Shown here: positions 27,330 through 30,960 of the stretch, one piece after another
Position numbering within the stretch: position 1 is the first letter of the stretch
Layout: every line of letters begins with the position of its first letter
IMG/VR virus record: IMGVR_UViG_3300024999_000132
Location: 1 to 55,277 of that record
From: a virus
Lineage: Duplodnaviria; Caudoviricetes
Reading direction: 5' to 3' (one strand)
Length of the DNA: 55,277 nucleotides
Position numbers and translations under genes: made by a program
The notes under the pieces: model-generated
Told to the model about the DNA's origin: nothing
The model's database searches: none
The model's input: the letters and a program-made list of their open reading frames with translations, nothing else

Positions 27330-27611
27330 ATGAATAAGCAACAACTCGTAGCAGAATTAAGTATTAAATCGGAGATCACAAAAAAGGAAGCCGAGAAGCA
27401 TGTTACAAATCTATTTGATATTATCATGGAAACTGTAGCTATTGGCGAAGATGTAAAGGTAGTGGGTTTTGGAAAATTCGAGAAGAAAGAAACAAAAGGT
27501 CGTGAAGGAGTATCAAAACTACAGGGTGTGGAAAAACCATGGAAAACTGAAGATTCTTTCAAACCATATTTTGATCCTTCTAAGGCATTTGAAGATAAAG
27601 TAAAAGCATAA
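27330..27611 (+). CDS. hup: HU-family DNA-binding protein
   Basis: MNKQQLV...GFGKF..REG..PYF. Confidence 0.9.
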   Translation: MNKQQLVAELSIKSEITKKEAEKHVTNLFDIIMETVAIGEDVKVVGFGKFEKKETKGREGVSKLQGVEKPWKTEDSFKPYFDPSKAFEDKVKA

Positions 27612-27696
27612 TAAACAACAATAATTTTGTGCTATCAGTGTAAGTCCTCATATTCAATAGATATCGTTGGGTATAGGGCAGGATAGCATATTACAT

Positions 27697-27772
27697 GCCA
27701 CTGTAACTCAATTGGTAGAGTACCTGACTTGTAATCAGGATGTTGCGGATTCAAGTTCTGCCAGTGGCTCCA
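27697..27772 (+). tRNA. tRNA-Thr(TGT)
   Basis: GCCACTG/CAGTGGC acceptor, CCTGA-CTTGTAA-TCAGG anticodon arm, TTCAA T-loop, encoded CCA, 76 nt. Confidence 0.93.
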
Positions 27773-27811
27773 TATAAAAATAAAATAAATAAAAAGGTGG
27801 CAAACAAAAAT

Positions 27812-28018
27812 ATGTCAATAATCAACAATAAAAATTTCTGTCCAATTTGTGTAAAACGTGGAACCTGTATGTGGGAAGATAAATTATCTAAACTAGAAGG
27901 AACAAAGAACAATTATATTGGTCTTGATGTTACTGTAAATGGATGTGAAGCGTTTTTATTGGATGAAAATGTTGAGGTTGAGGATTTAACTGGAGAGAAA
28001 GAAGAACTAGAAGAATAA
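27812..28018 (+). CDS. small Cys-containing protein
   Basis: ATG 27812 after AAGGTGG; CPIC..C..C. Confidence 0.65.
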   Translation: MSIINNKNFCPICVKRGTCMWEDKLSKLEGTKNNYIGLDVTVNGCEAFLLDENVEVEDLTGEKEELEE

Positions 28019-28139
28019 TAATTAAATAATACTAATTATTATATATTAATTAGTATAAGAGTAAGATAAAAAGTGATATTACTAGAAAGGAATGATTAAA
28101 TTGCAAGAATCTAGTAAAGATTAAACATCTCTTACAGAT

Positions 28140-28835
28140 ATGGTGAATTTGGCGATTCATTGGCAGTTACCTTAACCAACCACAATAAGGTCAGAAATGG
28201 TTCCTGACGCACTCGAAAGAGTACCTGAGATGCAAGATACACCGACTTGCTATTGTGGTCTGATAATCATATTGATATGTCTAGTAGCATCTTAGTTGGC
28301 ATACTATAGAAGGTTGTAAGTCCAACAAAAATGTTTCCCTCACTCCCATGATTTTATTGGCGAAGGTTTGTAGTGGATAAGAGTGTAAAGAGAACCTTGT
28401 ACAAGTTAAGTATCGTTTGGGGAAATGATATTTAACAATATTATGAAGGAATTATAGAAGTGCAAACTTCCTCGAATTATTTATAATTCGGTTTCAAGTG
28501 TAATTCCTTCATAATAAAAATACAATATTGGCAGATGCCAAAGATAAAGAATAGGGAAGTGTAGCGAAATAAGTAATGATCAACCATGCTGTAAGGCATG
28601 TATGTGGGATGCTACATAGTCATCTTTAGATAAAGGGTTGGGATGACACAATGGCTTAATTGCCGACTAGATAATTTCCCCTCATCACTCATTGTTTGTT
28701 CTCTATGGCGTTAATCACAGTTTTATTTAAACTTAGTGATAGAGACAAATGGCATACTGCAATGATGTTGATGAATATAGAGTATGCCAAATTACAAATA
28801 AGGTGAATTTATAGGGGTAGATTCACCTTTATAAT
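28140..28835 (+). ncRNA. large structured ncRNA candidate (ROOL/GOLLD-like size and context)
   Basis: ORF-free, GC-elevated; many hairpins, a GAAA tetraloop and crossing long-range helices. Confidence 0.65.
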
Positions 28836-28865
28836 AAATATATTATCGAAAGGATAGATATTTTT

Positions 28866-28997
28866 ATGGAAGAAATACTAGTGGCTATTTTAAATGAACT
28901 TAAAGAAATAAAAGAATTACTTGCACCACATGCATGTAGAACAAGTGAAGATGCTCAAACATATAAACTTATTCCTTATAAAAAAGAATTGAGTTAA
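28866..28997 (+). CDS. small hypothetical peptide (43 aa)
   Basis: AAAGGA RBS, MEEILVAILNELKEIKELL amphipathic helix. Confidence 0.4.
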   Translation: MEEILVAILNELKEIKELLAPHACRTSEDAQTYKLIPYKKELS

Positions 28998-29044
28998 TTA
29001 CTCTAATAAAGAAGAAAATACAAATTGAAAGAAGGAAATAATAA

Positions 29045-29728
29045 ATGTCTAATTCACAAAACACTAATTCAACAATTTCACTAAAAGAGTCTTTTCGCAC
29101 ATTGGTTTATATTGATAAAACTATTTCATCTCTCACTTCATATCTTTCTAATAAAAATAACTCTATTTCTGTGATTGAACAACATTTGAAAGAAAAATCT
29201 AATCCAGAAGCAAAGAATGAGGAATTAGATACAACTACTATTAAAGAATATCCAGATGCTTCAACAATTAATATTATTAATCTTGTTCAAAACTTAATTG
29301 CAGAGAAAACAAAATTAGAAATTTCAGTAGAATTAGCTAAAAGAGATATAGTAATTCAAACTAAAGATAATAATAATCTAAGTTTAGATTCTGCCATATC
29401 AAATGCAAAACAATCTAGAAATTTAGCTAATGTATTAAATAATCTTATCAATATAAAAACGGATGAGAAAAAGACCGTTGCTCAAGGGTTTAAGTTTAAT
29501 ATCAACGGGGAAGAAGTGCCATATAGGTATGATGTAGTAATTACTAAAAACATTAATTTTGATAGAAATACTGTTAGTGATAATTATAAATCTCTCTTAG
29601 AAAAAGCTGATAAGCTCAGTATTTCTATTGAAAAAGCCATGATGGAAGAAATTGTAGAATACGAATTTCCTTATAGTATTCATGATTCGACAGCAGATAT
29701 TGTAGGGAAGTATTTAGATACTTTATAG
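29045..29728 (+). CDS. helical coiled-coil protein (possibly DIP1984-like)
   Basis: 227 aa; ISLKESFR start, LSLDSAI, FDR...ADKLSISIE end; family assignment is a pattern impression only. Confidence 0.7.
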   Translation: MSNSQNTNSTISLKESFRTLVYIDKTISSLTSYLSNKNNSISVIEQHLKEKSNPEAKNEELDTTTIKEYPDASTINIINLVQNLIAEKTKLEISVELAKRDIVIQTKDNNNLSLDSAISNAKQSRNLANVLNNLINIKTDEKKTVAQGFKFNINGEEVPYRYDVVITKNINFDRNTVSDNYKSLLEKADKLSISIEKAMMEEIVEYEFPYSIHDSTADIVGKYLDTL

Positions 29729-29787
29729 GATTTAACCATGACAATTAATAAGGGGATTGCCTAACCATAGTCTCCTTATTAAAACAA

Positions 29788-30207
29788 CTAACCAGAAGCA
29801 AAGCAAGATAGACTATTTATTTGGACATCTGAAATTAGATGTAAATTCAAGTTAAATCTTACCATATTCAAACATGGTACTAACACAGGTTATGTATATT
29901 AAATACATAAATATAAACAAAAATTGAGTTTGCTGTCACAAGCAAGAAGAATCACTAATCTATCACTAAGCGCAAAATCATCATTCGCAAATTCGATATG
30001 TCTCTAATTTCAATATTCATTAGTACGACAATCAATCGCTAATCACGCATAAATAAATTTTAGGATTAATAATCCTTAACTAGAAAAACAAATATAATAA
30101 AATTATAGTTTTTAAAAGATACTCTCTTAGAAATAAGAGGATGATTTTAATAATAAATGGATAATATAATTAATAAATAGTCTTATTTTGCTTGCTTTAC
30201 TGGTTAG
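29788..30207 (+). ncRNA. ~420-nt structured RNA closed by a long terminal stem
   Basis: 29788-29821 pairs with 30172-30207; seven internal hairpins; central unpaired repeat tract. Confidence 0.7.
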
Positions 30208-30629
30208 ATATATAATAAAAGTCATTTGTGTTTTAGACACGTTATATGGAGGCATTTGTCTCCCTTGGTATTTTTGATATGGGAGAGTTTAATTATCTCC
30301 CCTTCTCAATAAACTAAATAGGTTTTGCAAGTTGCAACCTAAATAAAAAACTTGCATTTATTAATAATTATAATCCAAGAAAAACTGTATTTTCTAGGAT
30401 TTTAAATCAGGAATATTATTAGTACTTAAATGGATGAATATAATTACCCTTGCTGAAAGGCATGAGGATTGCAAATGTATTTTTTTACATTTGCCATGAT
30501 AATTTTTGCTCAGATGAGTACGAGAGAATTGTTAAAAACTAAGGTAGGATGAGTTTTGTATATGACGCAATTGAAGGGATTGGTTTTAAAACTGTTCGAT
30601 AGCGTGCTATTTTTAGAATCCTACACTAT

Positions 30630-30704
30630 TGGCGAGTAGTTCAGTGGTAGAACGCCTGACTGTTAATCAGGATGTCGAAGTTTCGAATACTTCCTTACCA
30701 GCCA
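30630..30704 (+). tRNA. tRNA-Asn(GTT)
   Basis: CCTGA-CTGTTAA-TCAGG anticodon arm, GAAGT-TTCGAAT-ACTTC T-arm, G discriminator + CCA; one acceptor-stem mismatch. Confidence 0.88.
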
Positions 30705-30707
30705 AAC

Positions 30708-30781
30708 GCCTGACTAGTTTAATGATAAAACTTCTGTTTTGTAATCAGAGATTCACAGTTTGATTCTGTGGTTAGGCTCCA
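30708..30781 (+). tRNA. degenerate tRNA-Thr(TGT)
   Basis: GCCTGAC/GTTAGGC acceptor, TTTGTAA loop, CCA; D-loop lacks GG and T-loop is TTTGATT. Confidence 0.7.
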
Positions 30782-30819
30782 TAATTAATATCTATATTCT
30801 CTATAAGGAGGATTAAACA

Positions 30820-30960
30820 ATGAAAGAAACTAATATTTATGATTCAATAAATGAAAATACAATATGCCCTATATGCTTTAGAAATAGATTTTGGCTAAAG
30901 TTTTATTGTGGTAAGACAATATTATGGTGTGCTGATTGTGGGTATTGGATAGAGATTTGA
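30820..30960 (+). CDS. small Zn-ribbon protein (46 aa)
   Basis: AAGGAGG RBS; CPIC...CADCG. Confidence 0.6.
   Translation: MKETNIYDSINENTICPICFRNRFWLKFYCGKTILWCADCGYWIEI

Follow-up and report, generated by a model that had tools for sequence, protein, structure and literature searches.

We analyzed a 55,277-bp fragment of a viral record (the window; Duplodnaviria, Caudoviricetes; IMG/VR record IMGVR_UViG_3300024999_000132), for which CheckV estimates a completeness of 28%, and focused on an open reading frame (ORF) of 227 amino acids (aa) at positions 29045 to 29728 of the plus strand and on the non-coding region that follows it. This region was found to be a structured RNA of the plus strand. 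By our reading, held at a probability of about 0.55 and derived from sequence comparison, the window carries a diverged member of a widespread two-part module, in which a gene for a small helical protein precedes a large structured RNA on the same strand, and the RNA would be a functional product that works with the protein encoded upstream. A preliminary description of this DNA had placed a 227-aa gene ahead of a structured RNA and had proposed that the two form a pair. The ORF, the RNA and the linkage between them were all recovered in the present analysis.

The gene-linked RNA spans about 470 bases (29745 to 30207), lies directly 3' of the gene on the same strand, and is accompanied by no plus-strand ORF of at least 40 aa within positions 29729 to 30628. 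The 420-nucleotide (nt) stretch was predicted to fold with an energy of -89.9 kcal/mol, compared to -57.3 +/- 5.1 kcal/mol for 100 shuffled sequences (z-score of -6.44; none of the 100 shuffles folded as well). The minus strand likewise folds well (z-score of -5.63). The minimum-energy fold contained a 5' hairpin (H0, 29745 to 29782), a long closing helix (P1) formed by a 5' strand at 29788 to 29821 and a 3' strand at 30172 to 30207, and seven inner hairpins. P1 is a 34-bp helix with bulges and a G-U pair, and its arms correspond at the DNA level to 34-bp inverted ends about 350 bp apart. The 5' hairpin, the terminal helix and the two groups of inner hairpins had all been proposed in the preliminary description, and each was borne out by the fold, with the first group extending from 29825 to 29952 rather than to 29945 and the second lying at 30062 to 30139.

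To compare this fold among relatives, viral contigs were scanned with the protein and with the 5' arm of the RNA. The protein scan yielded 20 loci, with protein identity ranging from 93% down to 43%, and the RNA scan yielded 28 stretches, comprising 22 true copies and 6 chance matches in coding DNA. Taken together, the two scans provided 14 distinct elements, every one of which (14/14) stood behind a homologue of the gene. Conservation among the relatives began about 10 nt before H0 and ended a few bases beyond the 3' strand of P1. When 38 base pairs were followed through the 14 distinct relatives, 97.6% of the 532 cells were paired, a level not reached in any of 500 shuffles and compared to 36 to 54% in controls in which the sequences were slid. 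Six of the 38 pairs were altered on both sides, and the helices were kept in 14 of 14 distinct relatives, which is, as far as the long stem goes, the outcome that the preliminary description had expected from an examination of the DNA downstream of homologous genes. In P1 (20 pairs in 14 sequences), 253 cells were Watson-Crick, 25 were G-U, none was A-C and 2 were of other types. Since P1 holds G-U pairs without A-C, and the G-U pairs would be mismatches on the other strand, the helix belongs to an RNA of the plus strand and not to the DNA. A similar bias was detected in H0 (10 pairs, 4 of them changed on both sides; 97.9% of cells paired), where G-U was found in 10 cells compared to A-C in 2. 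The H0 loop, CCUAACCA, is conserved, and a loop of the UAACCA type is also present in the clade of loci L133 to L137.

The inner hairpins all lie on the plus strand. The hairpins at 29860 to 29879 and 30084 to 30113 are based on the window's own fold. At the segments matching 29890 to 29910 and 29923 to 29952, hairpins were folded by 14 of 14 and 11 of 11 distinct sequences, respectively. The same was found for 10 of 11 distinct sequences at 30062 to 30076 and for 13 of 13 at 30124 to 30139, the latter hairpin bearing an invariant UUAGA and three pairs with compensatory changes. At these four inner positions the place was retained and the sequence swapped, and throughout the hairpin positions from 29860 to 29952 the relatives bear different sequences in the same places. 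Whole hairpins were also seen to be swapped between otherwise close elements of the window clade. A separate observation concerns the word TAACCA, which occurs three times, before H0 (29735 to 29740), in the H0 loop (29762 to 29767) and at the start of P1 (29789 to 29794). Each copy is able to pair with TGGTTA at the 3' end of P1 (30201 to 30206), and AACCA is retained in both the H0 loop and the P1 start of the L133 to L137 clade. These sites may allow alternative pairing.

The family extends well beyond the window clade. On another viral contig (L052), downstream of a protein of 31% identity lie about 480 nt of non-coding sequence enclosed by a long helix, with a tRNA coming next. When species-representative genomes were scanned, 242 of 290 pattern matches were confirmed as relatives, and 80 of these were kept as a bacterial set, mostly from Oscillospiraceae, Faecalibacterium and other Clostridia; carriers include cultured Faecalibacterium and Dysosmobacter strains, among them the Faecalibacterium prausnitzii and Dysosmobacter segnis strains of loci L089 and L128. 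A second scan provided the viral set (193 matches, 95 relatives, 80 kept). In all four bacterial loci inspected, a long closing helix was found about 10 to 30 nt past the stop codon and enclosed about 390 nt. Among 47 non-redundant bacterial elements, P1 comprised 26 pairs, nearly all of which occurred as several pair types (for example, UA 25, CG 12 and GC 4, or GU 19, GC 13 and AU 12).

A conserved motif just inside the bacterial P1 folds as an H-type pseudoknot, and most relatives have such a pseudoknot immediately behind the 5' strand of P1. By the criterion that we applied, a pseudoknot of the family type was present in 108 of 133 unique downstream sequences, and the P1 duplex had a z-score below -3 in 100 of these 108 loci, with a span of 384 to 620 nt. 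In 49 distinct regions, 89.2% of the cells of the 13 pseudoknot pairs were paired, compared to 25 to 37% in slid controls, and 8 pairs were changed on both sides. Cells with changes on both sides numbered 47, compared to 13.0 +/- 2.7 after shuffling, and 0 of 500 shuffles reached this count. Stem 1 alternates between GGUUCA/UGAACU and GCUUCA/UGAAGU, and stem 2 occurs as GUGCAG, CCGCAG, GUGUGA, GCAUGG and other variants, each with a matching partner. A generic pseudoknot score separated real from shuffled sequences in part (at least 27 in 96 of 133 compared to 11 of 133), and the pseudoknot calls were thus based on position, covariation and a covariance model. A long-range pair of CAUCUCCAU with AUGGUUGAAG is predicted in the bacterial relatives and hardly varies. 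No match to Rfam 15 was detected on the element in seven related loci (E ≤ 1). In many bacterial copies (L053, L059, L060, L064 and L093), a second GGTTCGG or GGTCCGG word stands about 35 to 45 nt after the pseudoknot and may be a rival of stem 1 in pairing with the GAAC strand; similarly, the loop of L134 has two possible partners, GAUUC upstream and AAUUC downstream. These competing words and alternative pairs hint at a conformational switch.

The linkage between gene and RNA was near total when approached from either partner. A covariance model of the pseudoknot (R1) matched 79 of 80 bacterial loci, with the one miss ending at a contig edge, and 58 of 80 viral loci at E ≤ 1e-3, many of the tested loci being in or near its training set. 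The matches occurred once per locus, on the plus strand and just after the gene, with none elsewhere in the 0.9 Mb searched. When viral contigs were independently scanned for the RNA by pattern, 69 loci were found, and in all 69 the protein was encoded on the strand of the RNA no more than 1 kb upstream, with no case on the opposite strand. The 61 flanking ORFs from bacterial loci included no recurrent partner. The bacterial neighbors were varied and included UDG, PD-(D/E)XK and UvrD nucleases, AraC, TraX, GGDEF and radical SAM proteins, transporters, XRE regulators, NYN, Macro, ADP-ribosylglycohydrolase and NMN transport. Thus, the gene and its RNA form a self-contained unit. In the viral loci, tRNAs were found within 1.5 kb in 14 of 33 loci checked, and P1 adjoined a tRNA-Tyr in 5 of 10 loci checked. 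As a related observation, the 3' strand of P1 in viral loci L168, L181, L192, L204 and L210 reaches the 5' end of a tRNA-Tyr that heads an array of up to 8 tRNA genes.

The copy in the window shares with the family its position directly 3' of the gene on the same strand, its closing helix and its full-length alignability. In place of the family pseudoknot, the window has weak A-U-rich alternatives only, with the hairpin at 29825 to 29842 (H1) aligning with and taking the place of stem 2, and with a stem 1 of A-U pairs that overlap P1. Two loci were found to be intermediate in form. L009, which belongs to the window clade, has a short pseudoknot of the family type (AUUC/GAAU and ACAUC/GAUGU), and L134, of the L133 to L137 clade, matches R1 with an E-value of 3.8e-4. 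In a full-length alignment (A7), the window, L009 and L001 aligned with L133 to L137 at a mean column identity of 62%, and the window was found to share with L133 to L137 the H0 loop, P1, the central strand and the 3' block. We therefore regard the RNA of the window as a diverged family member in which the pseudoknot has probably decayed or been remodelled.

The central strand of the RNA (29946 to 30055, plus strand) had been described as a G-poor tract of degenerate 7- to 8-nt units, held unpaired as a periodic binding array for the upstream protein. Sequence blocks within this strand are invariant among relatives, and its composition is rich in C relative to G (8 G and 22 C in 96 nt). Tandem Repeats Finder returned no rows for the tract, and the periodicity of C, TC or A[AT]T words at 5 to 12 nt was not above that of shuffles (p of 0.52 to 0.71 for any period). 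The lowest-G 90-nt window of the RNA had a G content of 0.067, compared to a mean of 0.059 in shuffles of the same RNA, and is thus not depleted in excess of chance. Of the earlier view, what stands is a slight difference in pairing, with a mean unpaired probability of 0.54 in the tract compared to 0.42 elsewhere in the RNA; this difference is weak, and the pairing predicted for the strand is inconsistent between relatives. The tract is a conserved block, C-skewed and slightly less paired than its surroundings, and not a displayed repeat array. A small peptide encoded in the tract was ruled out, as 1-nt gaps among relatives break the frame.

The 227-aa protein is a member of a large family that has no name. 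It was matched by no model of Pfam, PHROG, NCBIfam or PADLOC, with NCBIfam returning 0 families at E ≤ 1 and PADLOC 0 matches over 15 proteins. A profile of 14 relatives retrieved 642 cluster representatives at E ≤ 1e-3 and 481 at 1e-10, and a profile of 45 members retrieved 3778 database proteins, among which every named one is called hypothetical. Library searches with 17 distant members gave only weak matches on single proteins (USP7_C2, E of 0.0078; phrog_25222, E of 9.6e-4). An AlphaFold model of the protein (predicted local distance difference test score of 78.6) has four long helices and two beta hairpins, and a conserved His-Leu-Lys-Ser-Lys / Asp-Glu stretch sits in a low-confidence loop of this model. 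Foldseek detected nothing in the Protein Data Bank (PDB) at E ≤ 1e-3. In a wide structural search, the top match was PDB 3kdq chain A (Z of 10.2, root-mean-square deviation of 3.3, 147 of 152 residues, model residues 10 to 205), followed by a row with a Z of 8.4 over 67 residues; a Z of about 10 is modest for helical bundles, for which the search tool warns that values under about 13 are weak. We take 3kdq to be DIP1984, a functionally unknown protein of Corynebacterium diphtheriae. The resemblance to DIP1984 that had been suggested earlier thus gains some support from the best fold match. It found no counterpart at the sequence level, where the profile of 45 members searched against PDB sequences did not find 3kdq and returned only uL30 (E of 0.095), and the window protein is about 75 residues longer. 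Pfam DUF7873 (PF25283), a lead from one Atlas cluster of look-alikes with 26% of its members carrying the family, was rejected, as none of three gene-holding genomes or records matched it at E ≤ 1 and hmmscan gave no match. The parts of the literature on DIP1984 and DUF7873 that were available to us contained nothing pertinent.

Several results weigh against a partnership of the RNA with the protein, or against the window's membership in the family. R1 found no match at E ≤ 1 in the window or its clade, and the canonical pseudoknot is lacking there. In the viral set, 22 of 80 loci had no R1 match, some of which hold variant pseudoknots by eye, and in viral locus L150 a coding sequence comes directly after the gene, with no pseudoknot or non-coding gap seen; in L150, the gene may stand without its RNA. 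The divergence of the two partners was found to be uncoupled, with RNAs of the window clade being 72 to 83% identical to that of the window whether the protein is 92% or 43% identical; this fits recombination, with no sign of co-evolution. Together with the exchange of hairpins, the mismatch between RNA and protein identity points to modular recombination inside the RNA. The protein family is also acidic (median isoelectric point of 5.15, range 4.74 to 6.77, and median net charge of -7; n = 45), which is unusual for an RNA-binding protein and argues against a coating protein. A simple binding of the RNA by the protein would be disfavored by both this acidity and the uncoupled divergence. In addition, the compared sequences are related, such that the covariation counts overstate the number of independent events, and the sequencing runs found to contain the stretch were 11 DNA runs from 5 studies and 0 RNA runs.

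A working model can be outlined for the two-part module. The gene and RNA are probably made as one transcript, because P1 starts only about 10 to 30 nt past the stop codon in the four bacterial loci. A terminator would define the 3' end of the RNA, a task that in many phages would fall to the processing of the tRNA adjoining P1; the adjacency of P1 and tRNA-Tyr suggests a single transcript from which the 3' end of the RNA is cut by tRNA processing. A consensus scan of the window identified, 41 nt after P1, a terminator-like hairpin whose tail is rich in T (30248 to 30273, plus strand) and which is likely the end of the gene and RNA transcript. With its two ends clamped in P1, as seen in the fold, the RNA would be protected at its ends and would be a functional product, more than an untranslated tail. 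It most likely acts with the protein encoded upstream, either as a ribonucleoprotein or with the two as partners in one pathway. That it stands first in phage tRNA arrays is a hint that it may serve in tRNA or translation biology or in the conflict between phage and host. A bolder and more tentative proposal is that these large structured RNAs form a new and widespread class in gut Clostridia and large phages, each with a dedicated protein made from the same transcript, and that RNA and protein might act as a ribonucleoprotein on tRNAs or the translation apparatus in phage-host conflict, with the pseudoknot and the central strand as its active or recognition surface.

Other explanations were weighed against this model. 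The RNA could be a cis-acting 3' untranslated region that stabilizes the mRNA against 3' exonucleases or mediates feedback by the protein, with no function in trans. The short distance from stop codon to P1, which leaves little room for a separate promoter, the strict confinement of the element to the strand of the gene, and the terminator-like hairpin after the RNA are all consistent with this explanation, yet a covarying fold of 380 to 620 nt with a pseudoknot and invariant loop bases exceeds what a stabilizer needs. Moreover, in the distant subclade the RNA is better conserved (72 to 83% identity) than the coding sequence (62 to 65%), and the RNA adjoins tRNAs in phages, which suggests its release as a separate RNA; we thus consider a purely cis-acting role unlikely. 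Alternatively, the RNA may act alone in the manner of ROOL and GOLLD, with the protein co-transcribed and in the same pathway but not binding the RNA. The acidity of the protein and the uncoupled divergence would be explained by such an arrangement, and placement by phage tRNA genes resembles that of GOLLD and ROOL. By contrast, a two-way, near-total linkage with no other recurrent neighbor is what would be expected of a physical or tight functional pair, and an RNA acting alone is therefore viewed here as rather doubtful.

Two further explanations fared worse. In the preliminary description, the central strand was presented as single-stranded and periodic, an array to which an oligomer of the protein would bind to give a ring, filament or sponge, or as part of a pair resembling type III toxin-antitoxin systems. 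The gene-RNA linkage would fit either form, as would a central strand that is conserved while its predicted pairing differs between relatives, and a hint of a CG-step spacing of about 8 nt was detected in the bacterial relatives (8 nt being the best period in 38 of 76 related sequences, with p < 0.05 in 16 of 76). Set against these points are the absence of tandem repeats and of significant periodicity in the window, a G content no lower than in shuffles, the acidic protein, and, for a toxin-antitoxin pair, an RNA that comes after the gene as a single complex fold, together with the lack of PADLOC matches. We judge this explanation improbable. A DNA-level element, whether a miniature inverted-repeat transposon, an iteron origin or a cruciform by the gene for a D5-type primase-helicase, would account for the inverted ends, the folding of the minus strand and the replication genes nearby. 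It is judged highly improbable, in that the G-U to A-C ratio of P1 (25 to 0) is explained only by an RNA of the plus strand, no repeated iterons were present, and unrelated genomes have the element at the same place, behind a single gene family. A miniature inverted-repeat transposon or insertion sequence was rejected, as the element occurs in one copy each in the window and in the complete relative of 230,300 bp and its 'inverted repeat' carries the G-U bias.

Comparison with described systems places the RNA in a known kind, that of the large orphan structured RNA, sometimes with a neighboring protein partner. Membership in a described family (Rfam 15, including GOLLD, ROOL, OLE, raiA, tmRNA, 6S, Y RNA and RNase P) was rejected for want of any covariance-model match. 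A scan of the whole window at Rfam 15 gathering thresholds returned only a skipping-rope RNA and three tRNAs, a scan of 27600 to 30900 at E ≤ 10 gave nothing credible on 29732 to 30212, and ARAGORN found no tmRNA. Like ROOL and GOLLD, which occur near tRNAs, the gene-linked RNA is large, has many hairpins, is found in phages and Firmicutes and adjoins phage tRNA genes. Unlike them, it is shorter (380 to 620 nt), has no Rfam match and sits directly behind one protein gene, a strict placement that we do not know of for ROOL or GOLLD. With OLE/Oap, Ro60/Y RNA and SmpB/tmRNA it shares a structured RNA encoded beside a dedicated protein gene, and in Y RNA and tmRNA the two ends of the RNA are paired as they are here; it differs from these systems in having no Rfam match and a protein that matches no partner family in Pfam. 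Type III toxin-antitoxin systems (ToxIN), known from bacteria and mobile elements, likewise join a protein gene to the gene of a non-coding RNA. In these systems, the toxin gene is preceded by an RNA made of tandem repeats, whereas here the RNA follows the gene, holds 0 tandem repeats and is accompanied by no PADLOC match (0 of 15 proteins), and membership was thus rejected. The pair is not described in the parts available to us of the literature on large structured phage and bacterial RNAs (including bioRxiv 10.64898/2026.09.22.753630 and PMC10690425), and supplementary catalogues of thousands of unnamed candidates (PMC10690425, PMC8040213) may list parts of it. This RNA and protein family, and the strict linkage to one gene on one transcript, appear to be new.

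The surroundings of the module in the window are low in G+C and rich in RNA genes. A full-length skipping-rope RNA (Rfam RF02924; 28180 to 28258, plus strand; 69.4 bits compared to a gathering score of 36.7) is found about 800 nt ahead of the gene, between a tRNA-Thr (27697 to 27772) and a 43-aa ORF, and a tRNA-Asn and a second tRNA-Thr lie downstream of the gene-linked RNA. In this part of the phage, genes for non-coding RNAs form an island. A second non-coding block lies at about 30440 to 30625 (plus strand), between the gene-linked RNA and the tRNA-Asn; it was found nearly base for base in L014 and L015 and not in the other relatives, and had no credible Rfam match in the scan at E ≤ 10. 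Two small plus-strand ORFs with Cys-x-x-Cys pairs resemble zinc ribbons (46 aa at 30820 to 30960; 92 aa at 27740 to 28018), neither of which matched a family in library searches, and the 46-aa ORF was found again after the RNA in several relatives. An annotated phage collection gave no match to the window at the DNA or protein level, and the window's close relative of 230,300 bp is a complete record.

To our knowledge, only a few large and widespread RNAs of bacteria and phages with function unknown have been described, namely OLE, GOLLD, ROOL and raiA, and each of these opened new RNA biology. The RNA reported here comes with one cognate protein family, which provides a built-in handle by which genetics, pull-downs and structural work are directly possible. 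With this module, a large family of hypothetical proteins, and likewise the non-coding space that surrounds phage tRNA clusters, gains a first lead to function.

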